From a candidate division WOR-1 bacterium RIFOXYB2_FULL_42_35 (GTDB lineage Bacteria > Margulisbacteria > WOR-1 > O2-12-FULL-45-9), in contig MEUC01000002.1 in NCBI GenBank assembly GCA_001771545.1, positions 3,909 through 67,908 on the forward strand: 64,000 nt of DNA. Direction: 5' to 3'. Below, one piece after another: positions 8,002-51,191 of this stretch. A model generated the notes under the pieces. The model was not told the origin of the DNA. It saw nothing but the letters and a program-made list of their open reading frames with translations, and searched no databases. The stretch's first letter is position 1, and every line of letters begins with the position of its first letter. The translations under genes and the position numbers were made by a program.

Positions 8002-8894
8002 GCCCGCAACTCGGAACTCGGAACCCGAAATTAATAGATAAGTTCATCAACTACCTCAAGACCGAACGCAATTACTCACCACATACAACCAGCAACTACC
8101 AACGCGACCTAATCTTTCTCATGGATCTTTTAAAGGGGAAGAAATTTGATCGCTCGGCTGCACGGGAATACTTGATTGCCTTGGAACAAAAACATTTTTC
8201 CCGTCGTTCAGTGGCTAGAAAGCTTTCTGCGGCACGCTCATTTTTCCGTTATCTCTTGAGAGAGAAACTGGTTGAGCAGAATCCGTTTGCCAACTTAGTA
8301 ACCCCTAAGCTGCCTAGAAAACTCCCCAACTTCCTCTATCCGGAAGAACTGGACCGCTTACTGAAAGGTCCTGATTTAAAGGCTCCCCTTGGTCTACGCG
8401 ACAAAGCTATCTTGGAAATGATTTATGGCACAGGGCTACGGGTAGCGGAACTTATTATGATTAACAAGAACGATGTTGATTTTGAGGAAGGAGAAGTAAA
8501 GGTCTTGGGTAAAGGTTCTAAAGAACGGATTGTTTTGTTTGGTTCTCATGCTAAAGGCGCCCTATTAACATATCTAAAAGACGCCAGGGATAAACTCAGA
8601 AGCAATAAAGAAATTGCGGCTTTTTTTGTTAATCGTCGCGGCGGCCGTTTAACCGCTCGATCGATCGAAAGGATGCTAGTATATTATAGTAAAAAGGCAG
8701 GAATAACCAAGAAGGTAACTCCCCACACTCTAAGACACTCCTTTGCTACCCATCTTTTAGCTGGCGGCGCTGACCTTCGAATGGTTCAGGAATTGCTTGG
8801 GCATGTTTCACTTTCAACCACTCAAGTCTACACCCATATTACCAAAGAACGCCTCAAGGAAGTCTACGATTCTGCTCATCCACGATCGAGTTAG
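7998..8894 (+). CDS. xerC: Tyrosine site-specific recombinase XerC/XerD
   Basis: C-terminal catalytic region RHSFATHLLAGGADLRMVQELLGHVSLSTTQVYTH. The N-terminus carries an extra MSPQLGTRNPK extension encoded by a heptamer repeat. Confidence 0.88.
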   Translation: MSPQLGTRNPKLIDKFINYLKTERNYSPHTTSNYQRDLIFLMDLLKGKKFDRSAAREYLIALEQKHFSRRSVARKLSAARSFFRYLLREKLVEQNPFANLVTPKLPRKLPNFLYPEELDRLLKGPDLKAPLGLRDKAILEMIYGTGLRVAELIMINKNDVDFEEGEVKVLGKGSKERIVLFGSHAKGALLTYLKDARDKLRSNKEIAAFFVNRRGGRLTARSIERMLVYYSKKAGITKKVTPHTLRHSFATHLLAGGADLRMVQELLGHVSLSTTQVYTHITKERLKEVYDSAHPRSS

Positions 8895-11610: not shown

Positions 11611-11763
11611 AATAGAAGTTGGGTTTTGGTTGTGGAAGCTGGTCTGGAAGTTAGAAATGGTTGTGGAAGCTGGAATTTTCTAGCTTCAAGCTTCTACTTC
11701 TAACATCTTAACTAGCATCTAAAACAAACAACTAGCTTCAAATAAACAGGGGGTAAAAATAGA

Positions 11764-18873: not shown

Positions 18874-19248
18874 ATGCCGCTCTGCTTTTTGCTTCTACTC
18901 TTTGCTGAGAGCTCTGAAAAATTGACTCTCAAGCTCTCGCTCGTCAAACTTTCCTTCACCCAAATGTTTATCGTTAATACCCCCCCCCGATTTCACTTTT
19001 TCTCAAAATTCCTGAAAAATATTTTTGGGGTCATTGGTTACACCCGGGATGATCAGCCTGACCATCGGGAATGGACTAAAATCAATGCTTCCTTTTCTAT
19101 GAAGATTCGGCTCGATCAAAATAACCCTGAAGGCTGGAATGGCTTTCAAGCCCTGATTACCACTTATATGCGCTGGTATGTGCGGCCTAAACATTCGGAA
19201 GCATTGCTTAAATTCTTAAAAAAGATTCCTTGCTATGAGATTAGCTGA
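18874..19248 (+). CDS. Hypothetical protein (124 aa) containing a C9 homopolymer tract
   Basis: ORF without a clear RBS; the poly-C run 18980-18988 lies inside it. It may be a phase-variable or decayed gene. Confidence 0.3.
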   Translation: MPLCFLLLLFAESSEKLTLKLSLVKLSFTQMFIVNTPPRFHFFSKFLKNIFGVIGYTRDDQPDHREWTKINASFSMKIRLDQNNPEGWNGFQALITTYMRWYVRPKHSEALLKFLKKIPCYEIS

Positions 19249-19569
19249 AGCGCGCAAACTCCTTAAAAAGCACTATCGACACCATGAAGAGTGGACTTGT
19301 GGACAAGCTAAAATTTAGGCCACTGGATCGGACAGCAACCCCCGCTTTGACCAAAGAATAGAAATCTTTTTGGATTTAAGCCCTTATTCCGTAGATATCA
19401 AGAAAGTTGCCGCCTTACTTAAATTGTTTGATAAATTGGGAAGAAAAATTTTCTTCGGCCGCCACCTGCGGCGAAGATAAAAACTCCCAAATGTTTAGAC
19501 TTTTATCATTATCCATATTTGGATAATGGCCATAGCCAACCAGCCTAAATTTTGCTAAAATATCCTAAT

Positions 19570-20430
19570 ATGAAAACAGCCTTTGTGTTTCCCGGCCAGG
19601 GCTCGCAAACGGTCGGGATGGGTAAAGATCTGGCTGAATCTCTGCTAGATCAAGCTAACCAAATATTGGGTTTTGATCTCAAAAAGCTCTGTTTTGAAGG
19701 TCCGGAAGAAGAACTTAAGAAGACCGAGATCACTCAGCCTGCTATTCTAACTGTCAGCGTGGCTGCCTTCCAACAACTCGCAACCCGCAACCCGCAACCC
19801 GCAACAGTAGCTGGCCACAGCTTGGGAGAATACTCTGCACTAGTAGCAGCTGGAGCTATTAAGTTTGGAGATGCGGTTAAGATCGTTAACCTCCGCGGTA
19901 AGTTTATGCAAGAAGCTGTGCCAATTGGCCAAGGAGCCATGGCCGCTATTATTGGTGGGGAACGAGCTAAAATTGAAGAGGTTTGCGCTGGGATCGAGGG
20001 TGTCTGGCCAGCCAACTTTAACTCTCCTGGTCAAATCGTTATTTCCGGCCAAAAAGAGGCTGTTGAAAAGGCTTCTGCTGCTTGCAAGGATGCCGGAGCA
20101 AAAAGAGCCATCCCCTTGCCTGTTTCCGCTCCTTTTCATTGCCCACTCATGCAGCCTGCTGCTGATAAATTAAAAATGGAACTTGATAAAATTGAAGTCA
20201 AAGACGCAACTATTCCTGTTATTGCCAACGTTACAGCTGCTGCGGTAACCAGCGCTGCTGAAATTAGAGACTTATTAGTCAAACAAGTCACCTCCCCTGT
20301 TTTGTGGGAGGATTCTGTTAAGAAAATGATTGCTGATGGAGTGAGTTCGTTTGTTGAAGTTGGGCCTGGCAAGGTTTTGTCTGGGCTAATTAAAAAGATT
20401 GATAGAAACGTAGAAACTAGTAATGCGTAA
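19570..20430 (+). CDS. fabD: Malonyl-CoA:ACP transacylase
   Basis: MKTAFVFPGQGSQTVGMGKDL...AGHSLGEYSALV. Contains an in-frame (CAAC[CT]CG)4 repeat at 19774-19801. Confidence 0.93.
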   Translation: MKTAFVFPGQGSQTVGMGKDLAESLLDQANQILGFDLKKLCFEGPEEELKKTEITQPAILTVSVAAFQQLATRNPQPATVAGHSLGEYSALVAAGAIKFGDAVKIVNLRGKFMQEAVPIGQGAMAAIIGGERAKIEEVCAGIEGVWPANFNSPGQIVISGQKEAVEKASAACKDAGAKRAIPLPVSAPFHCPLMQPAADKLKMELDKIEVKDATIPVIANVTAAAVTSAAEIRDLLVKQVTSPVLWEDSVKKMIADGVSSFVEVGPGKVLSGLIKKIDRNVETSNA

Positions 20431-20492
20431 CGGGTAATGCGAATAGGGAATAATACAATTCTCATTCCCCATTACTTCATTCTCATTACTTT
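20419..20492. repeat. GTAATG-family palindromic intergenic element, copy A (overlaps fabD stop, upstream of fabG)
   Basis: AGTAATGCGTAACGGGTAATGCGAATAGGGAATAATACAATTCTCATTCCCCATTACTTCATTCTCATTAC. Confidence 0.7.
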
Positions 20493-20503
20493 AGGAGGTT
20501 ATC

Positions 20504-21235
20504 ATGAAACTTAAAGACAAAGTCGCTCTTATAACCGGATCCGCGCAAGGCATTGGTAAATCAATTGCCCAAGCCATGGCGGCCGAAGGAGCAAAGGTTG
20601 TAATTTCTGATGTTAATCTTGAGCTGGCAGAACAAACCGCCCAAGAATTTGGCCCGGATACGCTGGCCTTAAAACTCAACGTAGCAGATAACAACGAAGT
20701 TGACGCTACAATTAAACAAATCGTAGAAAAACTGGGACGCCTGGATATAGTGGTAAATAATGCCGGCATAACCAAAGACGGCTTGCTGATCCGCATGAAA
20801 AAAGAAGACTGGGACGCAGTTATCAATATTAATTTAAGTGGCGTATTTAATGTTGCCAAAGCCGCGGCTATTGTAATGATGAAACAGCGCTCCGGTAAAA
20901 TCGTTAACATTGCTTCTATAGTCGGACAAATGGGTAATTTTGGCCAGGCTAATTATTCTGCCTCCAAAGCTGGTGTAATTGGTTTTACTAAAACAGCTGC
21001 CAAAGAATTGGCCAGCCGAGGAGTAACAGTTAATGCCATTGCTCCGGGCTTTATTAAAACCGCAATGACTGATAAAATACCAAATGAGATTAAGCAAAAA
21101 ATGCTGGAGCAGATTCCTTTGGGGAAACTTGGTCTGCCGGAAGATATTGCCAAAGCAGCCGTGTTTTTAGCCAGCAGTGATGCTGACTATATTACCGGTC
21201 AAGTTCTCGCCGTTAACGGCGGGATGTACATGTGA
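20504..21235 (+). CDS. fabG: 3-oxoacyl-ACP reductase
   Basis: MKLKDKVALITGSAQGIGKSIA...; SDR motifs; GGAGG RBS. Confidence 0.93.
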   Translation: MKLKDKVALITGSAQGIGKSIAQAMAAEGAKVVISDVNLELAEQTAQEFGPDTLALKLNVADNNEVDATIKQIVEKLGRLDIVVNNAGITKDGLLIRMKKEDWDAVININLSGVFNVAKAAAIVMMKQRSGKIVNIASIVGQMGNFGQANYSASKAGVIGFTKTAAKELASRGVTVNAIAPGFIKTAMTDKIPNEIKQKMLEQIPLGKLGLPEDIAKAAVFLASSDADYITGQVLAVNGGMYM

Positions 21236-21244
21236 TCAAAGTTT

Positions 21245-21320
21245 TGAGTAATGTGTAATGGGTAATGTGAATAGGGAATAATAATATTCACATTACGCAT
21301 TACTATGTTCACATTACTAA
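21245..21320. repeat. GTAATG-family palindromic intergenic element, copy B (between fabG and acpP)
   Basis: AGTAATGTGTAATGGGTAATGTGAATAGGGAATAATAATATTCACATTACGCATTACTATGTTCACATTAC. Confidence 0.7.
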
Positions 21321-21345
21321 TAAAAACGAAGGGAGGTGAGTTGAA

Positions 21346-21591
21346 TTGAACGAACAGGAAGTTTACGAAAAAGTAGTCAAGGTTGTGATAGAACAATTAG
21401 GAGTGTCTGAAGCAGAAATCAAGAAGGAATCATCATATGTTGATGATTTAGGCGCTGACTCACTTGATACAGTTGAGTTGGTTATGGCCCTTGAAGAAGC
21501 TTTTAGCACAGAAATTCCGGACGAAGACGCCGAAAAGATTAAATCTATTGGAGACACTGTTAGCTATATTTTGTCTCACACAAAAAATTAA
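21346..21591 (+). CDS. acpP: Acyl carrier protein
   Basis: [19 protein letters not shown] (phosphopantetheine-attachment Ser motif). Confidence 0.93.
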
Positions 21592-21594
21592 TTA

Positions 21595-22548
21595 ATGAAT
21601 CTGCCAGAATTAAAAATTGATCGATATACCGCCCGCGTCCCTATCATTCAGGGAGGCATGGCAATTAGAATTTCTACTGGTTCTCTGGCTGGAGCGGTTG
21701 CAGCAGCCGGAGGCATTGGCGTTATTGGCGCCTCTGGCATGAGCTTTGAAGAGCTGGCCTCAGAAATCAAAATTGCCAGGGATAAAGCCCAAGGCGGAGT
21801 AGTTGGGATCAATATTATGTTTGCGGCCAGGGAGTTTTGGGGGATTGTAAATACTGCTATCAAGGAAAAAATCGACCTCATCTTCGTTGGGGCTGGTTTT
21901 TCCCGAGATATTTTTAAAGTTGGGCAGGATAACAATACCCCCATTGTCCCAATTGTCTCTTCTGCTAGATTAGCAAAAACCTCGGAACGTTGTGGGGCTG
22001 CTGCTATTGTAGTTGAAGGCAAAGAAGCTGGGGGGCACCTGGGCACTGATCGTTCTATCAAAGAAATTCTGCCAGAAGTGCTTAAGGCAGTTAAACTGCC
22101 AGTTATCGCTGCTGGCGGCATAACTAACGGTCAAGATATTGTTGATATGTTGAAAATGGGAGCAAGCGGAGTTCAAATTGCCACCCGCTTTGTTTTGTCC
22201 GAAGAATGTAATGCGGCCCTGCCCTACAAACAGCTGTACCAAAAGGCAACAGAAAAAGATATTGCAGTTATTTCCTCTCCTGTGGGGCTACCAGGACGAG
22301 CGATTAGAAGCGCCTTTGTCGAAAAACTGCTAAAAAAAGAAGCCCCAAAACCCGTAGGTTGTGATTTTTGTCTTAAGTCATGTTCTCTTGAATACTGTAT
22401 CATTCAAGCCCTGATCAATGCCCTTAAGGGTGATGTTGATCATGGCGTGGTGTTTTCAGGACAAAATGTCTGGAAGATAAAAGACCGCACCATTAAGCCT
22501 GCCGCTGAAATAATTAACGAATTAGTTAAGGAGGTCTCCGAACTTTGA
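21595..22548 (+). CDS. fabK: Enoyl-ACP reductase II (FMN-dependent nitronate monooxygenase family)
   Basis: NMO-family N-terminus ...[14 protein letters not shown]...; located in the fab operon. Confidence 0.8.
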
Positions 22549-23786
22549 GCAAAAGAGTTGTTGTAACAGGCTTAGGAGTTGTTTCCCCAATTGGAATTGG
22601 CAAAGACGATTTTTGGTCGGCTTTAAGCCAGGGCAAAAACGGGATTGACAAGATCACTCTTTTTGATACCACTAATTTCCCAACTAGAATTGCTGGTGAG
22701 GTCAAAGATTTTAACCCTGGGAACTATCTTGACAAAAAAGAAGCCCGTCGCTTAGTTCGTTTCATTCAGTTTGCCATTGCCGCCTCACAACTAGCCCTCA
22801 CAGACTCCGGTTTGACTATTTCTGACAACAACGCCAATGATGTTGGGGTTGTGATTGGTTCAGGGATCGGTGGAATTGATATTTTGGAAAGCGCTGCCTA
22901 TACTTTGAGAGATAAGGGCCCGGACAAACTTAGTCCTTTTACTGTCCCATTTATGATTGCTGATATGGCCGCAGGCTATGTCTCGATCAGTGTTGGCGCT
23001 AAAGGCCCGAATTCTTGTGTTGTCACTGCCTGTGCCTCAGGGACACATTCAATTGGCGAAGCTTATAAAATCATTCAGCGTGGCGCAGCCAAAGCCATGT
23101 TAGCTGGTGGATCCGAAGCATGCATTACCCCGTTAGGAGTAGCAAGTTTTTGCGCAGCTCGCGCCCTTTCAACTCGCAACGATGACCCTCAACACGCCAG
23201 TCGGCCATTTGAGGCCAATCGCGAAGGCTTTGTGATAGGCGAAGGTGCCGGGATTTTGCTTTTAGAAGGTTTGGAAGAAGCCCTTGCTCGCAACGCCAAA
23301 ATCTATGCCGAAGTTATCGGCTATGGCATGAGCGGTGATGCCAATCATATTACTGCCCCCGCCCCCGGCGGAGAAGGCGCTGTTCGCGCAATGCAAGCTG
23401 CCCTTAAAGATGCCAATATCAGCCCGGAGCAAGTTGACTATGTTAACGCTCACGGGACTTCAACCAAACTAAACGACAAGTTTGAAACCATGGCCATAAA
23501 AACTTTCTTTGGTGAACACGCCAAAAAATTAGCTGTTAGCTCAAACAAGTCTATGACTGGTCACATGTTGGGCGCAACAGGAGCAGTTGAGTTTATTGCT
23601 TCTATTCTTTCAATTGTCAACGACACGGCCCCACCAACAATTAACTATGAAGTCCCTGATCCAGAGTGTGATCTCGATTACGTTCCCAACCAAGCCAGGA
23701 AAATGCCGATTAATATTGCTATGTCCAATTCTTTTGGCTTTGGTGGCCATAACGCTATTTTGCTGGCCAAAAAGTATTCTCCTTAA
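22545..23786 (+). CDS. fabF: 3-oxoacyl-ACP synthase II
   Basis: [17 protein letters not shown]...; KAS II motifs; 413 aa. Confidence 0.93.
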
Positions 23787-23795
23787 GAGAGAATA

Positions 23796-26700
23796 ATGAA
23801 AGATCAAAGATCAAAGATCAAAGATCAAAACAAATCCAAAGGTAAAAGCTCCGAAATCCAAACAAATCTAATAATCAAAGGTTCAAGGATTTTGATCTTT
23901 GGGCTTGGATCTTGGAGCTTGTTTTGCGCTTTGATCTTGGGACTTTGGATTTCTTGCCCCTCATTGGCCTACGCTCAAAGCACGATCTATCCTAAATTCG
24001 ACATTTCCGGTTATAAGAAGTGGGAATATAAACGGGTAGATGTTGATCCTTCAAGCAACTATTTCAGCGGCTTAACCCAGCTGGGTGGTTTTTATCAAAC
24101 TTACAGCGGAGGACCATGGCAAGAAAGGCTTAAGCTTAAAATTATCGGCGAGCTCTCAAAAGATCTTTCTGTTACGTACAATATCAATCAACAGCCCGAA
24201 ACCCCCGACCAATTTGACGTACAAGTCAAATATAAAGACACAGAACTAACCTTCGGTGATTTTTCTGCAACTTTTTCTGGCAACGAGTTTGCTTCCGTTT
24301 CTAAAACATTGAATGGGGTAAAGTTGACCTCTAAAAATTCCTGGCACGACGTTCTGGTGGTGCCCTCAACAAAACTTAAAAGCCAAACCCAAGCCTTAAC
24401 CGCCCAAAAAGGCAATAATACCAAGGGCCCCTATAGTCTTGGTCGCGGCTCAATCGTTGAAGACTCTGAAAAGGTTGAACTCAACAACGTCCCATTAAAG
24501 CGCAATGTTGACTATACCATTAACTACTTTGAAGGCAAGATTACCTTCAATAAAATATTAACCACTCTCGATGAGTTTAAATATAGCTATGAGTACACCA
24601 ACATGCTGGATCTCTTTTTCCCTTCGCTCTCAAAAAGAGACTTTTTTGGTTTTCAATCAAGATTTACAATTGATCCCAAAGAAGTTGGCAAGCCACCGCT
24701 CAAAAAGCAGTTGGTTGTTTTATCCGATCAACAGCAATTTCCTTCTTCGGGCAGCCTTGAGGCCGGTTTAACGGAAGCAGAAAGCAGTGGCCGCTATCTA
24801 ATCAACAATTACCCCCTCGTCGATTTCAGCGAAAAAATAACTTTTCTTGGTGCGGAGCTGCAAAAAAATACTCATTATATTGTTCGTTACGAGACAGGAG
24901 AAATAAAGCTTTTAACCAATACCTTGCCAACCGCAGCCGACCCCCTGACTGTTCAGTACAAATACTATAAAGTTTCCGCGGAAACAGACGCAATCTTAGG
25001 CATTGGGGGGCGCGGTCCTTATCAACTGAAAAATAATGGGCTTGTCTCCGAGAGTGAACGAGTGGAGGTTAATGGCCAGCTCAATGTCCGTAATTTAGAT
25101 TATTCTATTGATTACACCACCGGCCAAATTGTTTTTGGTATTCCGGTTAGTGAAACTTCACAGATTAAAGTTTCATACAAATACAAAGCCCTGGAAACCC
25201 CCGTTGAAACAAAGTCTAAATTTCCAACCGAACTAACAGTTGGCGCAACTTATCTGCGAGAATCAGCCAAAAAAACCAGCGGAACCAACATTGTTACAGT
25301 AATTGAAAGTATCACCGGACAAACAATTATTAACAAGAATTACCTAGCCTATCTAGCCAACCGTCCTTTGGCTGACAGCAGCGAAGCAACCACAACCCTA
25401 ATTGTTAAGGTTGATGGGCAAACCCTGACCCGGGAGGTTGATTATACTGTTCCCACAACCTACGTTGATCCCAGCACCGGCTACGCAGTTGTTACCCCGG
25501 AAGCAACCCTAGCCTACATCAATGATCGCGCTGATACTACTAATGGTTATGGCACCGGTACAATCTTATTTTTAAACCCGAGCACTGTTCTGGCTACCAG
25601 CTCAGTTACCGTAACCTATACGTATCAAAAAAACATTGTTGGCAAATTTTCCGGTGTGGGCAACGAAACCACTGGCCCATATTATTTAAGAAACGTTAGA
25701 AATGTTGTCCCCGGATCGGAAACTCTTCAGGTTTGGGAAAGGGGCTCCTCGACCATTACCACCTACACCCGCAACTCAAGCTTTGAACCAGACGCTGGCA
25801 GCACCGGCTATTCAATCAATTATGACGCTGACAACCCTTACATAACTTTTAACAATGGACTTTCCAGCACCAAGAACTTTCAGTTGATTTATCAATATGT
25901 TCCACCCTTGGGAGCAACAAATAACGCTGATTTAGCCCAATCCATTCTCGGTTTTGATACCAGTTTTAAAATCGGCAACCTCTTTAAAATAGACAGCGCT
26001 TATGCCCGCAGTGAAACTGACCAGGTTTTTATGGCTGAAGCAACCAGCGAAAGTTTTACCGGCAACGGAACCAAAACGTATTTACTACACTCTAGCGCGA
26101 CTCTGATCGAAAACAGTGAAAAAGTTTCGGTCAATAATAATACCCTTAATAAAGACTTGGACTATTTTGTTAGCTATACTAGCCCTGGCAAGGTTGTTTT
26201 CTATTATATTACCCCAACAACTGCCGATGCTATTGTTGTTGACTATAAATACCAATCCCTTTCCGGTATAGCCTCCGGGCAAACCAGTAAAGTTGACAGC
26301 GCTTATAGCCTTGGCGCAGAAACCAAAGTTTTTGGAGACACCTTGACCCTCTCTGGGGTGACCAAAAAGATTGGTCAAGATTTTACCCCCATGGGCGGCA
26401 CATCAATTGGTTTGGGCTCGAGTTATAATGCCTATGATCTTAAATTCCAACAAAAAAACTTCCACTCATTAACTGCTAATTATTCCTACAAAGAAAACAC
26501 CAATCCTTTAAGCACTTACCGGGATCGTTTTTTAAAAAGTTATGACAACTCAATAAACCTTGGGATTGACCCTAACAAGTTAGTAAAAATAGCTCTTTAC
26601 TATCGAGACTACCGGACAATTGACGACCTTTTGCCTGCTAGCACCGCCCACGCCAGTGACAACCAACAACAATCTTATTCCCTTAGTCTTGTGCCAAAAA

Positions 26701-28016
26701 CCTTGCAGCATCAAGAGTTGTCTTTTACCCAACAATATAGCGCCAGCAGAACCTTCTCGCAACAAGACACCTTAAGAGACAGTCGTAATTTTTCCGAAAG
26801 CACTATTGACTATCTTACTGCCAGCGGGGCACTTAAATTTACCAAGAGGTTTTCCGCTAATTATAACTATCAACAAAGTAATCCAAAAACAATCTCGCTT
26901 AAGTCCAGCACCACCGAAGCCACCCATGAAGCTGTTTACTCGCAAAAACATGTTGTCGATACAACTTATGCCTTCTCTGCCGACTTAACTTTCCCTCAAA
27001 TAAGTAGCTGGGTCGCCCGCGTCAGTGTCATTGATCATAAGGACTATAATCTTTACACTGCCTTTTCTACAACCAATGAAATTGTCAGCACCAGAAACGA
27101 AAGCTATAACACAACCTTTGTTCCTTTTCAACAACTGAGCACTTCACTCGACCACAATCGCTCAGAGCAAACCAGTGTTGTGGTGGGCGGGGCTAACCCT
27201 AAAACAGAAAGGACTACAACTAAAACAGCCTATAGTCCTTTTAGTTGGCTTTCCGGAGGCTGGACATATTCACAGAGTGAGTCAATCCCTCAAACAGGCA
27301 TCGTTTATAAAACCAGCGGTAAAGGCAATACTTATACTGCTATCTACAAACCAATTTCTTTAACTTATTTTAGCCTTGTCTCCACTTTCTCAATAACCGA
27401 CAACCGGCAGGTAGCTCCTTCTGGAACAACTCCCGAGGTAACAACCGACACAAACACTTTTTCGCAAAATTATGTTTTAGGCTTCACCCCTCATAGTTTA
27501 TTACCGTTTAAAGTTGGTCTAACTCTGGAAAATTATCGTAATACCAACGATCATCCCAGCGTTGCCAGTAGAATTGATACGAAAACTGAAAATCAGACCG
27601 TCAGCTTGGGGTTAAAAACGACCCCCTTCACAAGTTTCACTTATAGCACAAGCTATGATCATAAAATTACTCGAGTTATAAGGGATTTGACTGTTGCTCC
27701 TCAAAACAAATTAAAAAGCACCTTTAATAATGCCTTGTCTTATCAAGTCAATAAAATGAGCACTCTTAATTACAGCCGACAGGATGAAAACAATGGCGGA
27801 GAAATTCAAGGGGGGAAAGTAGCCGCTTTAAACATTAATAAAACTACTCAAGCCCTGAGCCTAAGCATTATCGTGCCTATAGATAACGTTGTCATAACTA
27901 GCTTTGTTTTTACAACTTCTTTAAAAACCGTGGACTATCGCAATCTGGACAAGCCAAACAAAGCCGATGATTTTATTGCTTCGTTACTAACGTTTGAAGG
28001 GACCATAAATTTCTAG
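23796..28016 (+). CDS. Giant (1406 aa) secreted beta-rich protein, probable outer-membrane protein, with an extended N-terminal leader shared with the downstream subtilase
   Basis: N-terminus MKDQRSKIKDQNKSKGKSS...ILIFGLGSWSLFCALILGLWISCPSLAYA|QS (long signal peptide). Internal modules of about 100 aa recur, of the form ..V.VNG..L.....DY.I.Y..G.I.F. C-terminal strand ...LLTFEGTINF ends in Phe, as in OM beta-barrels. Confidence 0.6.
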   Translation: MKDQRSKIKDQNKSKGKSSEIQTNLIIKGSRILIFGLGSWSLFCALILGLWISCPSLAYAQSTIYPKFDISGYKKWEYKRVDVDPSSNYFSGLTQLGGFYQTYSGGPWQERLKLKIIGELSKDLSVTYNINQQPETPDQFDVQVKYKDTELTFGDFSATFSGNEFASVSKTLNGVKLTSKNSWHDVLVVPSTKLKSQTQALTAQKGNNTKGPYSLGRGSIVEDSEKVELNNVPLKRNVDYTINYFEGKITFNKILTTLDEFKYSYEYTNMLDLFFPSLSKRDFFGFQSRFTIDPKEVGKPPLKKQLVVLSDQQQFPSSGSLEAGLTEAESSGRYLINNYPLVDFSEKITFLGAELQKNTHYIVRYETGEIKLLTNTLPTAADPLTVQYKYYKVSAETDAILGIGGRGPYQLKNNGLVSESERVEVNGQLNVRNLDYSIDYTTGQIVFGIPVSETSQIKVSYKYKALETPVETKSKFPTELTVGATYLRESAKKTSGTNIVTVIESITGQTIINKNYLAYLANRPLADSSEATTTLIVKVDGQTLTREVDYTVPTTYVDPSTGYAVVTPEATLAYINDRADTTNGYGTGTILFLNPSTVLATSSVTVTYTYQKNIVGKFSGVGNETTGPYYLRNVRNVVPGSETLQVWERGSSTITTYTRNSSFEPDAGSTGYSINYDADNPYITFNNGLSSTKNFQLIYQYVPPLGATNNADLAQSILGFDTSFKIGNLFKIDSAYARSETDQVFMAEATSESFTGNGTKTYLLHSSATLIENSEKVSVNNNTLNKDLDYFVSYTSPGKVVFYYITPTTADAIVVDYKYQSLSGIASGQTSKVDSAYSLGAETKVFGDTLTLSGVTKKIGQDFTPMGGTSIGLGSSYNAYDLKFQQKNFHSLTANYSYKENTNPLSTYRDRFLKSYDNSINLGIDPNKLVKIALYYRDYRTIDDLLPASTAHASDNQQQSYSLSLVPKTLQHQELSFTQQYSASRTFSQQDTLRDSRNFSESTIDYLTASGALKFTKRFSANYNYQQSNPKTISLKSSTTEATHEAVYSQKHVVDTTYAFSADLTFPQISSWVARVSVIDHKDYNLYTAFSTTNEIVSTRNESYNTTFVPFQQLSTSLDHNRSEQTSVVVGGANPKTERTTTKTAYSPFSWLSGGWTYSQSESIPQTGIVYKTSGKGNTYTAIYKPISLTYFSLVSTFSITDNRQVAPSGTTPEVTTDTNTFSQNYVLGFTPHSLLPFKVGLTLENYRNTNDHPSVASRIDTKTENQTVSLGLKTTPFTSFTYSTSYDHKITRVIRDLTVAPQNKLKSTFNNALSYQVNKMSTLNYSRQDENNGGEIQGGKVAALNINKTTQALSLSIIVPIDNVVITSFVFTTSLKTVDYRNLDKPNKADDFIASLLTFEGTINF
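23801..23828. repeat. (AGATCAA)x4 heptanucleotide tandem repeat at the 5' end of the giant-protein CDS (four GATC sites)
   Basis: aagatcaaagatcaaagatcaaagatcaaaac encodes KDQRSKIKDQN. Confidence 0.8.
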
Positions 28017-28020
28017 GGGT

Positions 28021-30300
28021 TTAAAGGGCGATTAACTTGCCCTTGGCAATTACTTTGTTTCCTGATATTACTTGAAAAATATATACACCGTTGGGTACAC
28101 TTGTCCCAAACAGATCAATTCCATTCCAACTGGGATCATTACTGCCGGCCTTGGCTCCGTTTTCACCAGCAATATAATTCTGCTGCCAGATTAGCGTCCC
28201 GGTTAAATCAAAAAGATAAATACTGGTGTTGAAGTTTCCTTGCAGACTATAATTAAAAGTCACCGTGGAGGCAGAACTGCGCACAAAAGGATTGGGTAAA
28301 GCATAGGCCATTGGCAAACCAGTTTGGGTTTCCGCCGCCTTGGCGGGTTCCGAACTGTTTTGCAGATTAAGTAAAATTGTTTCCAGGCTCGTTGCCCCTG
28401 TTTGATCATAAGCTGTTAATTTTAAAGTGTATTGGCCGGATAATCCGGCTGTTTCCCAGGTTCCCAAAACGCCAGCTTCTACTGTGCTATAAGATTCCTC
28501 ACCATAAGCCGGTAATGGCCGCAATCTTATTTTGGTAAAAATTGTTGGGGAAGCGCCCTGGCCATATTCCAGATAATATTTATCGAAATTAAAATCTGTA
28601 GCTGTTCCGGAAATAGTAACATCTCCGGTAACGGTGGCTCCCGATGTAGGGGTAGCAATCAGGGCTTGGGGCGGCGTGTTATCAATAACTATCGCGATTG
28701 AGGCTTCATCACTAACTCCCGCAACTGTAGAATAGACATTAACTGCAACAGTATAGTTGCCGTCTGTTACAGCTGTTGTATCCCAAGTTGCCAACAAATT
28801 AGCGGTTGCGGCGGTTGTGCTGCTGCCAATACTGGCCACAACACTGCCAGCCTGCAAAGCTAGAACTTCATAACTGCTAAAAGTTTGACCGGCAGCTGTC
28901 CCATAAATTTCTACGCTCCCTTTGATGTATGAATTGGACTCTGGCGAGGCAATTGCTGCGGTTATTGCTGCCAAAGCCTTACTAACATTAATCCTGCCAC
29001 TCCCTAAATCACCTAGGTACGTTGGGTTTTGCGCATCAATATTATCAGCAGAGGTTGTCACTGCATTGGTTATGTCTGCAACAGTCATAGCCGGATATTG
29101 GGCTTTCATTAAAGCAGCTAAGCCCGCCACAAAAGGAGCAGCAAAAGAGGTTCCATTGTTCCCCAAATAATAACTGCCATCCATGGTAGTCGTCATTATG
29201 CTGCTGCCGGGAGCACAAACACTGATCCAACTGCCATAATTAGAAAAGCTTGATTTAATATCGCTACTATCAACAGACGCAATTGCCAGCACTGTATCGT
29301 AACCGGCAGGATAGCGCAGAGAGGTAACGTTGTCATTGCCGGCAGCTGCTACCAGAACGGCCCCATTGTTATAAGCATCGGAACAAGTACTCTGCAGGCC
29401 AGAGGGAGAAGAATTAAAACCAAAACTCATGTTCATCACATCAACATTACGTGAGCTAGCATAAGCAATAGCGGCTTTTATATTAGTATTTGTTCCTGTT
29501 CCACTACTGTCTAAAACTTTAAGCGGCAAGATCTTTGCTTGCCAATCAACACCAGCCACTCCCTTACCATTATTGGTCACTGCGCCAAGGACACCAGAAA
29601 CTTTGGTGCCATGACCAAAATCATCTTCCGGGTCATCATCATTATTAACAAAGTCCCAACCATGCGAGTCAATCTTGGCAGCTAAATCTTCATGGTTAGA
29701 ATCAATGCCAGAATCCAAAACTGCAATAACCACACTGGAAGAACCCGTGGTCTGATCCCAGCCGGACGGGGCCGATATATTTGTTAATCCATATTGACTA
29801 CTGTAATAAGTGTCATTGGGAATAGTCGCATACGCTTGGGCAATCTCGTCTGGAGAAGCTGAGACAACATCAGGATTATTTTGGTATTCCGCTGCTACAG
29901 TTTCAACATTTTTATCTTCAGGAAAGTAAATAACATAGTAATCTTTGAGATGGGTCCAATCTGGTCGGTTTTCTAAAGCCTTGCTATAAAGCTGTTTAAT
30001 TTTATAAACCCCGGTTTTGTAGCTTAAGGCTTGAACCGAATTAGACAGGAACTGGGCTTTATCAACAGAAAAGGCTGTTGCCCCTTGAGGTAAAACAATT
30101 TGTTCCGGTTTAAACTGGACCAAGATTTGACCGGGGGCATAGTCAGCCAGAGATAAAGATGACAAAGAAACCCAAAACCCAAAGATCAAAATCCCCAGCA
30201 AGCTCCAAATCCCAAATCCCAAGTTCCAAATTGCTTTTGATTTTGAAATTGGAGCCTGAAGCCCATTTTGATCTTTGATCTTTGATCTTTGGTCTTCCAT
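28021..30300 (-). CDS. Subtilisin-like serine protease (peptidase S8) with a C-terminal FlgD-Ig / T9SS-type sorting-domain-like tail and the shared extended N-terminal leader
   Basis: Catalytic triad blocks VAVLDSGID (Asp), HGTKVSGV (His), GTSFAAPFVAGLAAL (Ser). C-terminus LPNPF...IYLFDLTGTLIW...PNGVYIFQVISGNKVIAKGKLIAL. N-terminus MEDQRSKIKDQN...NLGFGIWSLLGILIFGFWVSLSSLSLA|D. Confidence 0.85.
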   Translation of the reverse strand: MEDQRSKIKDQNGLQAPISKSKAIWNLGFGIWSLLGILIFGFWVSLSSLSLADYAPGQILVQFKPEQIVLPQGATAFSVDKAQFLSNSVQALSYKTGVYKIKQLYSKALENRPDWTHLKDYYVIYFPEDKNVETVAAEYQNNPDVVSASPDEIAQAYATIPNDTYYSSQYGLTNISAPSGWDQTTGSSSVVIAVLDSGIDSNHEDLAAKIDSHGWDFVNNDDDPEDDFGHGTKVSGVLGAVTNNGKGVAGVDWQAKILPLKVLDSSGTGTNTNIKAAIAYASSRNVDVMNMSFGFNSSPSGLQSTCSDAYNNGAVLVAAAGNDNVTSLRYPAGYDTVLAIASVDSSDIKSSFSNYGSWISVCAPGSSIMTTTMDGSYYLGNNGTSFAAPFVAGLAALMKAQYPAMTVADITNAVTTSADNIDAQNPTYLGDLGSGRINVSKALAAITAAIASPESNSYIKGSVEIYGTAAGQTFSSYEVLALQAGSVVASIGSSTTAATANLLATWDTTAVTDGNYTVAVNVYSTVAGVSDEASIAIVIDNTPPQALIATPTSGATVTGDVTISGTATDFNFDKYYLEYGQGASPTIFTKIRLRPLPAYGEESYSTVEAGVLGTWETAGLSGQYTLKLTAYDQTGATSLETILLNLQNSSEPAKAAETQTGLPMAYALPNPFVRSSASTVTFNYSLQGNFNTSIYLFDLTGTLIWQQNYIAGENGAKAGSNDPSWNGIDLFGTSVPNGVYIFQVISGNKVIAKGKLIAL
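30268..30296. repeat. (AGATCAA)x3-4 heptanucleotide repeat at the 5' end of the subtilase CDS (minus strand)
   Basis: Plus strand tttgatctttgatctttgatctttggtc. Confidence 0.8.
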
Positions 30301-30344
30301 TCAGGTTGAAGTATACCATGATCTAGGAGTATAATAAATTCACC

Positions 30345-31538
30345 ATGAAATTTAATAAGCGAGCTAAAAAAGTTTTCTCCCCCGTTCTGGGCAAGTATTT
30401 TGGTGATTTTGAGATCGACAAAGCTAAAGGTTGTTATCTTTATAGTACCGACGGTAAAAAACACTTGGACATGTCTGCCGGTATTGCTGTATGCGGCACT
30501 GGTCACTGTCACCCACAGGTAGTCGCTGCTGCAACCAAGCAACTCAACAAACTAATCCACGTCTGTATTGGGGTAGCCTGTTATGAACCATACGTTAAGT
30601 TGGCAGAAATGCTGCAAAAAGTTGTCCCGATAAAAAACGCCCAATTTTTCTTTTGCCAAAGTGGCTCGGAAGCAACTGAAGCGGCAATAAAACTGGCAAA
30701 GTATTCAACAAAAAAGCCCGGCATTATTGCGCTAGAAGGCGGCTTTCATGGTCGAACCTATGGGGCCCTTTCGATGACCAGTTCAAAGATGAAATATCGC
30801 GAAGGCTATGAGCCGCTAGTGCCAGAAATTTATCTTGCCAAGCCAGACCTGGCAGAAATTGAAACACTTATAAAGAGTAAACAAATCGCGGCAGTTATAA
30901 CCGAGTTAATTCTCGGAGAAGGCGGCTATGCCGTACGGCCCAAAGAATTTATTACCGGCTTGCGCAAGCTTTGCGATAAATACAATGTGCTCTTGATTGT
31001 TGATGAAGTACAAAGCGGCATTGCTCGAACCGGCAAATGGTTTTTATCTGAACACTATGGCCTTCAACCAGATATTGTTTGTATGGCCAAAGGCCTGGCT
31101 TCCGGCTTTCCTTTGGGCGGCATTGCCGCTTCTGCTAAATTGATGGCCAAATGGTCACCCGGCTCGCATGGTGGAACCTTTGGCGGCAACCCGGTTTGTT
31201 GCGCAGCAGCAATTGCCACGCTAGAAGTAATTAAAAAGGAAAAACTCTTGCAAAATGCCACTAAAACGGGCGCATACCTAACGACTCAATTGAAAAAAAT
31301 GCAAAAGAAATATCCGTTGATAAAAGATGTACGAGGTTTCGGCTTAATGATCGGGGTAGACATTGGTGATTGGGATACTGTTAGCAAAATTATGACTTAT
31401 TGTTTAAAAAATAAAGTAGTAATCATCCCAACTGGCGGCGGCGGCACAGCTCTTCGCTTTATACCTCCGTTGACCATAAAGAAGAAAGAAATTGACCAAG
31501 CCTTAAAGGTTTTTGAGCAAGCACTGAAAAGTTTATAG
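30345..31538 (+). CDS. Class-III pyridoxal-phosphate-dependent aminotransferase (acetylornithine/GABA aminotransferase family)
   Basis: 397 aa; GHCHP, DEVQSG and PLP-lysine region motifs typical of AT-III. Confidence 0.85.
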   Translation: MKFNKRAKKVFSPVLGKYFGDFEIDKAKGCYLYSTDGKKHLDMSAGIAVCGTGHCHPQVVAAATKQLNKLIHVCIGVACYEPYVKLAEMLQKVVPIKNAQFFFCQSGSEATEAAIKLAKYSTKKPGIIALEGGFHGRTYGALSMTSSKMKYREGYEPLVPEIYLAKPDLAEIETLIKSKQIAAVITELILGEGGYAVRPKEFITGLRKLCDKYNVLLIVDEVQSGIARTGKWFLSEHYGLQPDIVCMAKGLASGFPLGGIAASAKLMAKWSPGSHGGTFGGNPVCCAAAIATLEVIKKEKLLQNATKTGAYLTTQLKKMQKKYPLIKDVRGFGLMIGVDIGDWDTVSKIMTYCLKNKVVIIPTGGGGTALRFIPPLTIKKKEIDQALKVFEQALKSL

Positions 31539-31829
31539 TTGTTTAGCAACCCCTTCTACTTCAAGGGTTTCTACATCAAAAATAGAAATAGGGAGAGGAT
31601 CTCTTCGTGCAGCAAAAGCAACAACGTAAGTAATAAAGGTGCCGGTCTTTGTTTCTTTTGCCCCCTGCTTAATTGCTGTAACGGCTCCTCTAGGCTTGTA
31701 CCGTCCACTGCCCGATCCAACAGGAATAACTTCTTTTCCTTTAAAACCTGTTTCCTTTGTGGCTCTTTCCCCAACTTTCAATTCCCCTCTTCCACCAGTT
31801 ATTTTTTTTAAAACTTGACTCCTAAGCAA
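31533..31829 (-). CDS. Hypothetical small protein (98 aa)
   Basis: ORF only; basic, G-rich N-terminus; no family recognised. Confidence 0.35.
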   Translation of the reverse strand: MLRSQVLKKITGGRGELKVGERATKETGFKGKEVIPVGSGSGRYKPRGAVTAIKQGAKETKTGTFITYVVAFAARRDPLPISIFDVETLEVEGVAKQL

Positions 31830-31849
31830 AAATAGTTGAAAATCTAAAT

Positions 31850-32353
31850 ATGGTTAACTACACGGATTTAAGTCAATTAATCGAGCCAAACAATATCAAG
31901 CCAAAGTTTCTCCTTGTCCTCGACGGGATTGAAGATCCTCACAACTTTGGCGCGATTTTAAGGACCGCTGAAACCGCAGGTGTTGACGGAGTAATTATCC
32001 GCAAAAACAGGCAGGTACAAGTTACCGATACCGTCGTCAAAGTATCGACTGGTGCGGCCAACTTAGTCCCAATCGCCCGAGTGTCAAACATTGCCGAAAC
32101 TATCTCGACGCTAAAAGATCAAGCAATTTTGGTTGTAGGTGTTGAAATCGACGGAAACAAGGTTTATAATGAAGCGGATTTCCGGCAGAACATTGCCTTG
32201 GTCATTGGCAGCGAAGGGAAAGGGCTCTCAAGATTGGTCAAAGAAAGATGTGACGAAGTCGTGCACATCCCCATGATGGGCAAGATCAATTCACTTAACG
32301 CATCGGTTGCAACGGGAATTGTCCTGTTTGAAGTTTTAAAACAAAGGAGGTGA
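31850..32353 (+). CDS. SpoU/TrmH-family RNA 2'-O-methyltransferase (catalytic domain only)
   Basis: DGIEDPHNFGAILRTAETAGVDGVII...ALVIGSEGKGLS...NSLNASVATGIVLFE (SPOUT motifs). Confidence 0.85.
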   Translation: MVNYTDLSQLIEPNNIKPKFLLVLDGIEDPHNFGAILRTAETAGVDGVIIRKNRQVQVTDTVVKVSTGAANLVPIARVSNIAETISTLKDQAILVVGVEIDGNKVYNEADFRQNIALVIGSEGKGLSRLVKERCDEVVHIPMMGKINSLNASVATGIVLFEVLKQRR

Positions 32354-44164: not shown

Positions 44165-45868
44165 CTAAGGTTTCAGATGCTTAAGCCAATCCACCAATGC
44201 CTTTGCTGGTGGCGTAAAAGTAGGTTGCCCCGCCCATCCATAAAGAGTTTTATCCGGAACCCACAGGTTAAACATCATATGGCCGGGTTGTGAAGGAAGC
44301 GGGGTACTTGTGCTATTGATAACAGTAAGGACCAACTTGCCATCAAGATAATATTTAATAAAATTTGTTGTCTTGTGAACCCCATAATTATGAAAGTCTT
44401 TACAAGCGTCAAAATTACCCCCTGGATAGACCATTGTTTCATGACCGCCTACACCTTTGAGATAATAATTTAATTGGAATCCCTTACAATCTTTACCAGG
44501 GATCTCAACAATGTCTACCTCATCCTTAGAATTCCCCCAAATAAAGAAAGCACTAATTAACCCTGATCCCTGAGCACCTTTCATTCTGGCCTCAAAATAT
44601 CCATCAGTATAAATTTGTTGTATTGTGCGATATTCTCCAGAATCATAAGAGTATTGGCTGCCAGAAGGACTTTTGACAAGGGTAATGGTCATGAACCCAT
44701 TCGCAAAAGTGATTTGACTGGATTTCCACATAACATCAAAAGGGGAACCGTTTGCCCAGGTAGACATCTGCCAATTAGCGGAATCATGGGCATTCATATT
44801 ATGAACATAGGTTGGGGTTCCTGTAATTAATTGCCCAGAGGGAGCTGCTCCTGTATCTGGTTTTAGGATATCAGTAATAAAATAATCGGGGATTACCCCA
44901 TCAGGGGAAACCCCGCTCTGATCAATAACCACTAAACCATCCGAATAACCTTGATCAACAACGGGGCCCTCCTTGATAACAGCATCGTAAGAGCCCTGTT
45001 CCACATAAACACCTGAATCAGGAAGCCTAACTAAGTCAGGCTGAACCCCTTGATCCCCTAACCCACCATCGGCAACGTTGCCACAATTAAAAGAAACATT
45101 TTTTATTAAAACATCAACATCTGCTCCCTTGGTCTCAACAAAAAACCGAATCCGCCCTACTGTTTTTGGCAGAAGAGAGAGAGGAATTATCAGCGTTTGC
45201 TTTACCCAAGCATTAATCCCAGGGATAGTGCTTAGCTCAAGGTTCGGGGTATTAGAATTGTTTCCCTTAAAATAAATTTGTACTTTTGGCTGAGCCTTCA
45301 ACCCAGAAACAAGTTTAATTTTGCTAGAAATTTCAAAACTGAGTTGGCTTTGATAATTTAGCTGCCAGTCATTAGAATTGATTGAACTGATTGATACTCC
45401 CGGATTAGTTGCGTCTTTAGCATAAAACCGCAAAACTCTGCCACTAAGTTCCGAACTTGTTTTGTCAGAAGTGGTTACAATTACGTTAGAATCGTCCAGC
45501 TTTACTCCTAGATAATTACAAGTTATGCCGTCTGGGTTAATAAAGTCATGAGGCGGCCCATCTAGACGAGGACCCGCATCGTTTGCAGGCGGACTTTCAG
45601 GATCGCTGCAGCTGGCAGGAAAAAGAGCGATTACGCCATAACCAACAGCAACAACAGGAACAAGTGCTCTTTCTGCGGCTGTAACATGCTGAGGCTCTTT
45701 GACAAAGGTATATGCAGCAATACTATCAACCCCATCTGTAAAGGTGTTAGCGGCTTTCATAGCTAGTTTATCAGCTTTTTCAACAGTTGAACCAAAAACA
45801 CTGTCAAAGGCTTCTTGACAAGCACAACCAAGACTCCAAATTGTATTTGATATCGATAAATCACCCAT
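44165..45868 (-). CDS. Glycoside hydrolase family 16 (beta-glucanase/laminarinase-like) with N-terminal membrane/lipid anchor region and extra beta-rich domains
   Basis: C-terminal GH16 fold with the catalytic motif DEVDIVEI (ExDxxE beta-bulge variant). Hydrophobic anchor LVPVVAVGYGVIALFPASC. GGAGG RBS. Confidence 0.65.
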   Translation of the reverse strand: MGDLSISNTIWSLGCACQEAFDSVFGSTVEKADKLAMKAANTFTDGVDSIAAYTFVKEPQHVTAAERALVPVVAVGYGVIALFPASCSDPESPPANDAGPRLDGPPHDFINPDGITCNYLGVKLDDSNVIVTTSDKTSSELSGRVLRFYAKDATNPGVSISSINSNDWQLNYQSQLSFEISSKIKLVSGLKAQPKVQIYFKGNNSNTPNLELSTIPGINAWVKQTLIIPLSLLPKTVGRIRFFVETKGADVDVLIKNVSFNCGNVADGGLGDQGVQPDLVRLPDSGVYVEQGSYDAVIKEGPVVDQGYSDGLVVIDQSGVSPDGVIPDYFITDILKPDTGAAPSGQLITGTPTYVHNMNAHDSANWQMSTWANGSPFDVMWKSSQITFANGFMTITLVKSPSGSQYSYDSGEYRTIQQIYTDGYFEARMKGAQGSGLISAFFIWGNSKDEVDIVEIPGKDCKGFQLNYYLKGVGGHETMVYPGGNFDACKDFHNYGVHKTTNFIKYYLDGKLVLTVINSTSTPLPSQPGHMMFNLWVPDKTLYGWAGQPTFTPPAKALVDWLKHLKP

Positions 45869-46118
45869 GATTGCTTTCCTCCTGTTTTGTCTCTAGAGAG
45901 AGCTCCGAAAAACTCGCTTTCTCCGCGTAGGCGACCCTCTTAGGGTCGCAAGTTGTCGTCGAGAAGCAGAGCCTAAGAGGCTCCGCTACGCGATTTGAAG
46001 GGCAATTTTTCGGAGGTCTCCTAGATAGATATCTATCGCAATATTTATACAAAAATTTCACTAAATTAAGGGGGTTGTTTCGAGATTATGAAAAAGTAAC
46101 TCTGCGGGGAGCTGTCTG

Positions 46119-46607
46119 TTAATCTTTCTTATAATACTTGGTAAAATCTTCCGGCTTCATGTTTTCGATAAAGTCTTTAAACTTCTTGGTTTCTTCGGCA
46201 TCTTTCTCCGCGTTTACCAACTTAGCCTGCATCATGACCGTTTCTGTAGCAAATACCGGTAAATGGCGGCGAACGGCCAGGGCAATTGCATCTGAAGGGC
46301 GGGCATCAATATTCATATTTTTGCCATCTTTTTCCAGCTCAACATTGGCATAAAATGTCCCCTCTTTAACATCGGTAATTACAACTTTTAGAAGTTTGCC
46401 CCCAAGCTTATCCACGAATTCCAAAAGAAGATCGTGGGTCATTGGCCGAGGCGGCTTAACGCTTTGTAACTCCATTGCAATAGCTGAGGCTTCAAATACC
46501 CCGATCCAAATGGGCAGAAAATTCATCTCTTCTTGATCACGAAGTAAGACCAGGGGAGACATGTTGCGGGGATCAAAGCCTAGACCACCTACTTGCAGCT
46601 CTATCAT
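46119..46607 (-). CDS. Bifunctional nuclease family protein (DUF151/BFN)
   Basis: ...[34 protein letters not shown]...[14 protein letters not shown] is the typical BFN-domain pattern. Confidence 0.7.
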
Positions 46608-49422: not shown

Positions 49423-49477
49423 TGCAAAATAAAGTATAACAGAACAATGATGGGGGACACAAGGCAGGAGAGAACAA

Positions 49478-49557
49478 AGTAATGCGTAATGGGTAATGCG
49501 AATATTCTCATTACCTGCTGGCCGGCAGGCACATTACTCTATTCACATTACTTTCAT
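49478..49557. repeat. GTAATG-family palindromic intergenic element, copy C (between thrS and a small ORF)
   Basis: AGTAATGCGTAATGGGTAATGCGAATATTCTCATTACCTGCTGGCCGGCAGGCACATTACTCTATTCACATTAC. Confidence 0.7.
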
Positions 49558-50998: not shown

Positions 50999-51191
50999 GA
51001 TGTAATTATTATACTCACAAACAACACTTCTGACAAACAAATAATTAACAATTAATAATTAAACAATTAACAACTTGGTATCCCCTTCGGCGAGATATTA
51101 CATATAACCAACAAATACATTGTTATTAATTTAGTCATTGTTAATTATTGATTTAGATTTCAGTGTATAATATCCCCACAAGGAGATAATT

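Follow-up and report, generated by a model that had tools for sequence, protein, structure and literature searches.

Do the heptanucleotide repeats at the starts of two adjacent genes of the candidate division WOR-1 bacterium RIFOXYB2_FULL_42_35 serve to switch these genes on and off, or do they have another origin and role? The question arose from a stretch of 64,000 nucleotides (positions 3,909 to 67,908 of contig MEUC01000002.1, assembly GCA_001771545.1), hereafter called the window, in which an array of AAAGATC units directly follows the start codon of a gene for a predicted exported, SprA-like protein (gene 1) and a second such array stands at the start of the neighbouring subtilase gene. 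A first-pass annotation of this DNA had proposed a dedicated phase-variation switch, possibly combined with regulation by methylation of the GATC sites. We favour, with about an even chance of being right, a different reading: two neighbouring exported proteins would have exchanged their ancestral signal peptides for a palindromic leader built from heptamers, of which the arrays are the part that is still perfect, in a genome with a general tendency towards 7-nt repeats.

Two AAAGATC arrays directly behind start codons

Analysis of the window with Tandem Repeats Finder (TRF) revealed 4.4 copies of AAAGATC with 100% matches on the plus strand at 23799-23829, directly 3' of the ATG of gene 1 at 23796, where they code for residues 2-12 of the product (KDQRSKIKDQN). 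The second array, located on the minus strand at 30267-30296 and reported by TRF as 4.3 copies of TTTGATC with 95% matches, lies next to the ATG of the subtilase gene at 30300 and codes for EDQRSKIKDQN. Its perfect part (30267-30291) comprises 3.6 AAAGATC units, and a degenerate unit, GAAGACC, adjoins the ATG. The distance from the start codon to the array is zero to one unit at both long open reading frames (ORFs); the N-terminus encoded by gene 1 begins with MKDQRSKIKDQN, that of the subtilase with MEDQRSKIKDQN. When up to two mismatches were allowed, the 14-mer AAAGATCAAAGATC was found seven times in the window compared to a mean of 1.06 after shuffling, and none of 100 shuffles reached seven occurrences. 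The repeat which the first-pass annotation had registered as AGATCAA at 23801-23828 is the array detected by TRF; it is real and far beyond chance, and the TRF rows confirm that it is common to the two gene starts. An assembly artefact was ruled out, as the same sequence was obtained with independent assemblers and from independent samples.

Both arrays are currently in frame, as had been stated, which was verified on the ORFs at 23796-28016 and 28021-30300. The predicted consequence of a one-unit change, a frameshift, was computed for both genes: one or two extra or missing units bring a stop after 11-54 codons and truncate the products to 11-54 amino acids, and a change by three units keeps the frame. 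Likewise, each unit carries a GATC, and 28 bp of either locus hold four of these sites; the two products, described as secreted, are both predicted to be exported. A unit that is not a multiple of three, repeated in perfect copies right behind the start codons of two genes for exported or surface proteins, together with this truncation, speaks for a contingency locus, in which slipped-strand mispairing would alter the number of 7-nt units and thereby turn the SprA-like protein and the subtilase ON and OFF, for instance under pressure by phages or predators. On the evidence given below, we consider such a switch improbable.

ATG 23796 and ATG 30300 were taken as the real starts, because L022, the closest relative, has the identical DNA (TATTCTCCTTAAGAGAGAAT) upstream of gene 1, with divergence beginning at the start codon, and because the subtilase ATG occupies the same place with respect to the conserved motif GGTATACTTCAACC at two further orthologous loci (L151 and L152). 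Given this upstream identity and the conserved position of the subtilase ATG, a downstream TTG start, which would place the array in the 5' untranslated region, was judged unlikely.

The palindromic leader and its orthologous loci

Each array is part of a larger imperfect hairpin which could form in RNA or DNA. The hairpin of gene 1 extends over 23798..23953 on the plus strand; its 5' arm consists of the AAAGATC array followed by degenerate A-rich heptamers, and its 3' arm (23890-23947) of heptamers of the types TTGGATC, TTGGAGC and TTTGATC, which code for the predicted hydrophobic region (h-region). In the hairpin of the subtilase gene (30148..30297, minus strand), the array pairs with the distal codons of the predicted h-region (TTTTGATCTTTGGGTTTTGGGTTTC). 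The corresponding inverted repeats are the longest in the 64 kb: the first, I1, has arms of 58 nt at 23805-23862 and 23890-23947, which are 71% complementary, and is the longest of all, and the second, I2, has arms of 51 nt at 30173-30223 and 30234-30284, which are 73% complementary. Folding as RNA yielded minimum free energies of -62.1 kcal/mol (z = -3.5) for gene 1 and -68.3 kcal/mol (z = -3.3) for the subtilase. The 3' arms of both leaders are runs of degenerate heptamers (TTTGATC, TTTGGGC, TTGGATC, TTGGAGC and others). The two leaders are homologous, with 74-77% DNA identity and a perfect 26-mer in common, and, being palindromic, each of them matches its partner in both orientations. A third copy was not found in the 64-kb window.

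Read as protein, both leaders have the properties of type I Sec signal peptides, namely a charged n-region, a hydrophobic h-region and small residues at positions -3 and -1, from which we infer this function. The predicted signal peptide of gene 1 comprises 60 amino acids (23796..23975, plus strand). Its putative n-region covers residues 1-31 with a net charge of +6, the h-region corresponds to residues 32-54 (ILIFGLGSWSLFCALILGLWISC), and the leader ends with PSLAYA, with cleavage predicted between AYA and QS. This site was located by alignment, since the signal peptides of the orthologues end with A-x-A just before YPQLDISG; the mature start YPQLDISGFKKWEYK is conserved in more than 120 orthologues. 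For the subtilase, a signal peptide of 52 amino acids is predicted (30145..30300, minus strand), in the order MEDQRSKIKDQNGLQAPISKSKA, IWNLGFGIWSLLGILIFGFWVSL (the h-region) and SSLSLA, with cleavage between SLA and DY, as the signal peptides of its orthologues end just before the conserved DY[AV]PGxI. Its n-region would carry a net charge of +2, and its h-region would be 23 residues long as in gene 1. Because a signal peptide precedes the conserved mature start in every orthologue, the arm coding for the h-region must be translated here, and the n-region, part of which the arrays would encode, would be unusually long.

The following origin may be proposed for this arrangement. A lineage-specific palindrome of about 160 nt would have been built from degenerate heptamers by slippage or recombination, with the AAAGATC arrays as its youngest part. 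The A-rich arm, consisting of (AAAGATC)n and its decayed relatives, would provide a long n-region rich in Lys, Arg, Asp and Gln, and the complementary T/G-rich arm would provide the h-region followed by an A/S-x-A cleavage site; this division would arise because A-rich codons specify hydrophilic residues and their complements hydrophobic ones. Such repeats would be tolerated in the coding regions of signal peptides, where constraint acts on charge and hydrophobicity only.

Comparison with orthologous loci revealed that the leader is confined to this lineage. The peptide KDQRSKIKDQ is absent from all orthologues listed, 119 of gene 1 and about 48 of the subtilase, and the signal peptides of nearly all of them are 20-35 amino acids long, a few having other long N-terminal extensions. 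In L022, with 77% amino acid identity, the whole signal-peptide segment is different and free of repeats, and the flanks align well. As the orthologues, including the closest, have ordinary signal peptides, the AAAGATC leader module is lineage-specific. Inspection of orthologous loci had been suggested by the first-pass annotation as a check on its switch; that none of those listed carries the array points against it.

Searches for the leader outside these loci gave a similar picture. An exhaustive HMMER search retrieved only fragments of the same protein (P0121 and P0122), one unrelated ORF (P0124) and two chance matches, so that the leader is not a widespread protein motif. A word-index search that used the alignment of both leader peptides provided no scorable candidate. 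When metagenomes were scanned for the leader pattern, no population variants were found, and the single match was an unrelated intergenic hairpin (L142). The 126-residue ORF P0124 contains two copies of (AAGATCC)/(AAGCTCC) arms with their complement and is itself a heptamer-hairpin element; in L142, at 2160-2290, an intergenic AAAGATC/AAAAATC arm is paired with GGATTTGATTGGAGCTTGG.

Other repeats occupy the same place in several relatives. In L150, about 12 units of TGGTTAC/TGGTTTC encode the h-region (LLVTGYWFLISGFW), in L151 units of the AAATTCA type are found, and the gene in L152 starts with ATG TGG AAG and three copies of AAAAATCG, followed by a T-rich complement which folds back. Runs of identity at a lag of seven residues within the N-terminal 45 amino acids were detected in 15 of 120 gene-1 orthologues, eight of them with runs of at least four, compared to 0.9% of control windows and about 2% at lags of 6, 8 and 9; lag 5 was raised too, at 8.3%.

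The hairpins themselves suggest another explanation, in which a cis-acting RNA, either a 5'-terminal hairpin or an array bound by an RNA-binding protein, would tune translation initiation or mRNA stability of both genes. The folds are significant and begin at the start codon, and a consensus structure of 40 pairs is retained, with 40/40 paired in both leaders and 11 one-sided and two two-sided changes, none of which breaks a pair. This conservation carries no significant covariation with two sequences, as 127 of 500 shuffles performed equally well, and the complementarity may stem from the palindromic origin of the leader. The spacer of 44 nt in front of the subtilase gene and the conserved TATACT 9 nt before its ATG would fit a leaderless mRNA beginning with the array; translation of such mRNAs is known to be enhanced when CA- and A-rich sequences follow the AUG. 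On the other hand, Rfam gave no match at E <= 1 in the region 19000-32000, its sole match in the whole window being a tRNA, no candidate binding protein was identified, and the orthologues manage without the element. We regard a role of the leader at the RNA level as unlikely, even with the arrays of other genomes described below taken into account.

Heptamer repeats in the window and in other genomes

The two arrays are not isolated cases within their genome. The window contains six perfect arrays of period 7 that reach 2.5 copies or more, compared to none in 30 shuffled sequences; the same count gave none for periods 5 and 8-12 and two for period 6, and 16 of the 46 TRF rows have a period of 7. 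Several of these repeats lie within housekeeping genes. The fabD gene contains 4.6 copies of CAACCCG in frame (19774-19805), which encode LATRNPQPAT just before the active-site motif GHSLGE; the length of this FabD loop is presumably unchanged relative to E. coli FabD. Further in-frame arrays are located in mnmG (3.6 copies of AACTCGC, 62137-62161) and in frr (CATTGTT type, 57157-57189), and 2.4 copies of AACTCGG at 8008-8024 directly follow the ATG at 7998 of a gene for a XerC/D-like recombinase. In addition, intergenic hairpins with arms made of heptamer arrays were detected at 11620-11720, 20430-20500, 21230-21314, 49476-49554 and 51035-51154. The arms at 20430-20500, 21230-21314 and 49476-49554 consist of (GTAATGY)n and (RCATTAC)n, and (AATTAAC)n represents another arm type. 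The unit sequence differs from array to array, and GATC is absent from the other heptamer arrays of the window. The placement is that of short tandemly repeated repetitive (STRR) sequences: arrays stand at the 5' ends of genes (7998, 23796 and 30300), in the FabD loop and in intergenic hairpins.

Arrays of the AAAGATC unit itself were sought with (AAAGATC)3 as query in one genome per species. At least three consecutive units were found at at least 119 loci of many phyla, compared to about 0.3 expected by chance according to our own estimate, including Acidobacteriota (Pyrinomonadaceae and Blastocatellaceae), Bacteroidales, many Patescibacteria, Cyanobacteriota and Planctomycetota. These arrays comprise 3-10 units and often adjoin arrays of other heptamers: the same loci hold 55 other perfect 7-nt arrays versus 2-7 for periods 5, 6, 8 and 9. 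On the opposite strand, none of the listed arrays falls within an ORF, since tandem GATCTTT units contain a TGA in all frames. Several genomes carry many (AAAGATC)n copies, e.g. the Bacteroidales CAYMJH01 and the Blastocatellaceae CAYUGW01.

These observations touch the RNA-level explanation as well. Among the loci listed, 17 of 123 (AAAGATC)n arrays of other phyla precede, by 0-40 nt, the start codon of an ORF with 100 amino acids or more, which speaks for this explanation. The intergenic heptamer hairpins point in the same direction: the fabG-acpP spacer of L022 (1456-1547) holds a hairpin built of a different heptamer, GTCCAAA/TTTGGAC, so that, compared to the window, the position is conserved and the sequence replaced. 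A comparable RNA-level role has been suggested for TAACTGA repeats by MacGregor.

An excess of heptamer simple sequence repeats (SSRs) is known from many bacteria, and polymerase slippage was proposed as its cause (PMC4692102); the excess is attributed there to a 2007 survey. Examples are the heptamers GGGAATC and GGGGAYT of Xanthomonas and Nostoc (PMC4692102) and the TAACTGA repeats of Beggiatoaceae, Cyanobacteria and Bacteroidetes, which are located close to start codons as well as at ORF ends (PMC4679880). Our search of one literature collection retrieved no paper linking the host phylum with tandem repeats. A habit of generating repeats would be common to the host genome, its phylum and many other bacteria, and the two arrays would be present because this genome is prone to generate and keep 7-nt tandem repeats. 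Changes by one or two units would then be simple null mutations, changes by three units would be tolerated, and a dedicated switch need not be assumed.

As to the phase-variation hypothesis, an ON/OFF switch would be harmful in fabD, frr and mnmG, and the comparable arrays within these genes argue that arrays of this kind are not switches as a class. Heptanucleotide SSRs have been proposed as mediators of phase variation in Haemophilus influenzae, both for hmw1A/2A (PMC2651432) and for a TonB-dependent receptor (PMC8262952), but the tracts of 4.4 and 3.6 units described here are short compared to the heptanucleotide tracts of Haemophilus, which comprise 6-38 units (PMC2651432). Moreover, the array is only a part of a larger palindromic leader which the orthologues do not have.

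The number of units was surveyed by look-ups with both proteins and the flanking FabF and aminotransferase in NCBI, JGI, ENA and Logan contigs. They retrieved about 30 loci, which stem from at least 12 samples or assemblies, among them contig METW01000001.1 of GCA_001772415.1 from the Rifle aquifer data, and wherever a contig spans an array, the identical 31 nt and hence the same ON allele were found. This survey is weak evidence of low power, because all contigs are 100% identical and represent one clonal population seen as consensus assemblies. Six apparent mismatches in GCA_001772455.1 proved to be Ns rather than real variants, a 1404-residue 'variant' of gene 1 merely reflects a contig end at the array, and P0121 is encoded on a chimeric 992-nt contig bearing the same array; a look-up for the locus of P0122 found none. 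Two independent Logan contigs, L147 from SRR3989308 and L148 from SRR3989311, stop at 23800 and 23801, respectively, at the 5' edge of the array, as if the periodic 31-mer were a branching node of a k=31 graph. This break would fit length variation in the reads and equally a 31-mer shared with other organisms, as an identical periodic 31-mer occurs in 31 of the 119 foreign loci listed, groundwater members of the candidate phyla radiation included. Taken together, no positive evidence was obtained for the dedicated switch of the first-pass annotation; short tracts, arrays in housekeeping genes and orthologues without the leader speak against it.

The GATC sites and the promoter region next to the second array were considered as a third explanation, in which the GATC cluster would act as a Dam-type target or the T-rich array as an UP-like element of the aminotransferase promoter. 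The clustering of four GATC sites per 28 bp at each locus would suit the former. GATC is found 250 times in the window versus 234 times expected; this ratio of 1.07, neither avoidance nor enrichment, reveals no genomic signature of a GATC system. The window's other heptamer arrays do not contain GATC, and both AAAGATC arrays lie in coding DNA. Dam-dependent switches of the pap and agn43 type combine promoter GATC sites within regulator-binding sites with a GATC methyltransferase. The methylation-dependent regulation proposed earlier therefore found no support. The latter possibility concerns the divergent aminotransferase gene, for which a sigma-70-like promoter is predicted at 30306..30335 on the plus strand (TTGAAG-18-TATAAT). 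The subtilase array adjoins the upstream side of its putative -35 box TTGAAG, a promoter-flanking motif is conserved at the orthologous loci, and A/T-rich repeats occur there at the same place. The array of gene 1, however, is located 12 nt 3' of the fabF stop codon in an operon-like arrangement without a divergent promoter, so that a promoter effect cannot apply to it. A function as a DNA-level site is thus very improbable.

Gene neighbourhood, implications and comparison with known systems

Several points weigh against the replacement of signal peptides by a palindromic leader as the favoured reading. The perfect 26-mer at two gene starts, the hairpin kept in both copies and its placement at the start codon could reflect a selected cis-acting function. 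The h-regions of 23 residues are long for Sec signal peptides, and translation and cleavage of the leaders as predicted are read from sequence. The count of two copies holds for 64 kb of the genome, and the Logan breaks could indicate longer alleles in the reads or, equally, a 31-mer shared with other organisms.

If the favoured reading is extended, palindromic heptamer modules could be a source of new or replacement signal peptides that can be copied between genes, here between the gene of an SprA-like protein and that of a neighbouring cargo protease of a type IX secretion system (T9SS); this proposal is tentative and in our judgement rather doubtful. A hairpin repeat landing or growing in frame behind an ATG would yield a charged hydrophilic segment followed by a hydrophobic one. 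The leader module might also act as an RNA hairpin by which the two genes are coupled in their expression.

Gene 1 (23796..28016, plus strand) encodes a predicted exported protein of 1406 amino acids which is conserved across Margulisbacteria and Saganbacteria; the sources of its more than 120 orthologues are named Candidatus Margulisbacteria, Saganbacteria or candidate division WOR-1. Its similarity to the T9SS translocon SprA (TIGR04189) amounts to 29 bits, far under the cut-off of 200, and a sequence search revealed no relative in the PDB. The neighbouring gene (28021..30300, minus strand) encodes an S8 subtilase of 759 amino acids (PF00082, E = 1e-53) with a C-terminal T9SS type-A sorting domain (TIGR04183 Por_Secre_tail, 28.7 bits versus a cut-off of 23). 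The order fabF, gene 1, convergent subtilase gene and divergent aminotransferase gene is conserved in the phylum; in the window, L022 and L150-L152, the gene of the SprA-like protein always follows fabF and is convergent with the subtilase gene. Gene 1 and the subtilase may form a T9SS-like pair of translocon and cargo in a phylum which, according to PMC6349859, is the sister of Cyanobacteria.

The start codons of the subtilase and aminotransferase genes are separated by only 44 nt (30301-30344). The aminotransferase ATG at 30345 is located just 9 nt past the TATAAT, which suggests a leaderless aminotransferase mRNA; the subtilase mRNA might be leaderless too, with TATACT within GGTATACTTCAACC as its -10 box. 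Elsewhere in the window, a nested pair of 24-nt inverted repeats was observed at 45898-46020 between the minus-strand ORFs 44165-45868 and 46119-46607; it showed no Rfam match at the gathering threshold.

The results have implications on several levels. The heptamer-repeat habit of cyanobacteria is also present in a non-photosynthetic sister lineage, and one particular unit, AAAGATC, recurs as arrays across many unrelated phyla. Modules of a repeat and its complement can apparently encode complete signal peptides that differ between close relatives, and the leaders would be a concrete case of slippage-prone DNA reshaping protein N-termini. Should the ordinary reading hold, a 7-nt repeat at a gene start is by itself no evidence for a contingency locus in heptamer-rich genomes; should palindromic modules indeed be a source of signal peptides, the heptanucleotide repeats of Cyanobacteria-related lineages would be linked to protein innovation.

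Among known systems, the arrays resemble the hmw1A/hmw2A tracts and the AACAACC tract of the TonB-receptor gene of H. influenzae in their 7-nt unit, surface or exported products, 5'-proximal position and frameshifting effect. They differ from these contingency tracts in comprising 3.6-4.4 rather than 6-38 units, in showing neither length polymorphism nor an OFF allele among about 30 clonal contigs, in having counterparts in housekeeping genes and in belonging to a free-living groundwater bacterium. Like repetitive extragenic palindromic (REP) sequences and miniature inverted-repeat transposable elements (MITEs), the leader is an imperfect palindrome, about 150 nt long, that exists in more than one copy; similar heptamer-armed hairpins occur in intergenic DNA and elsewhere (L142 and P0124). 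Unlike REP sequences and MITEs, both copies, the only two known, lie in frame inside genes in place of a signal-peptide segment, and neither terminal repeats nor target-site duplications were seen at the leaders. The likeness to heptanucleotide SSRs and cyanobacterial STRR sequences comprises tandem 7-nt units in two to about ten copies, many arrays per genome with differing units, enrichment of period 7, and a location close to start codons, at ORF ends or in inverted stem-loop pairs (cf. PMC4679880). In contrast to these repeats, the unit here is AAAGATC and lies inside a coding region directly after the ATG, and its complementary arm is predicted to be translated as well, so that both arms together would make up the signal peptide.

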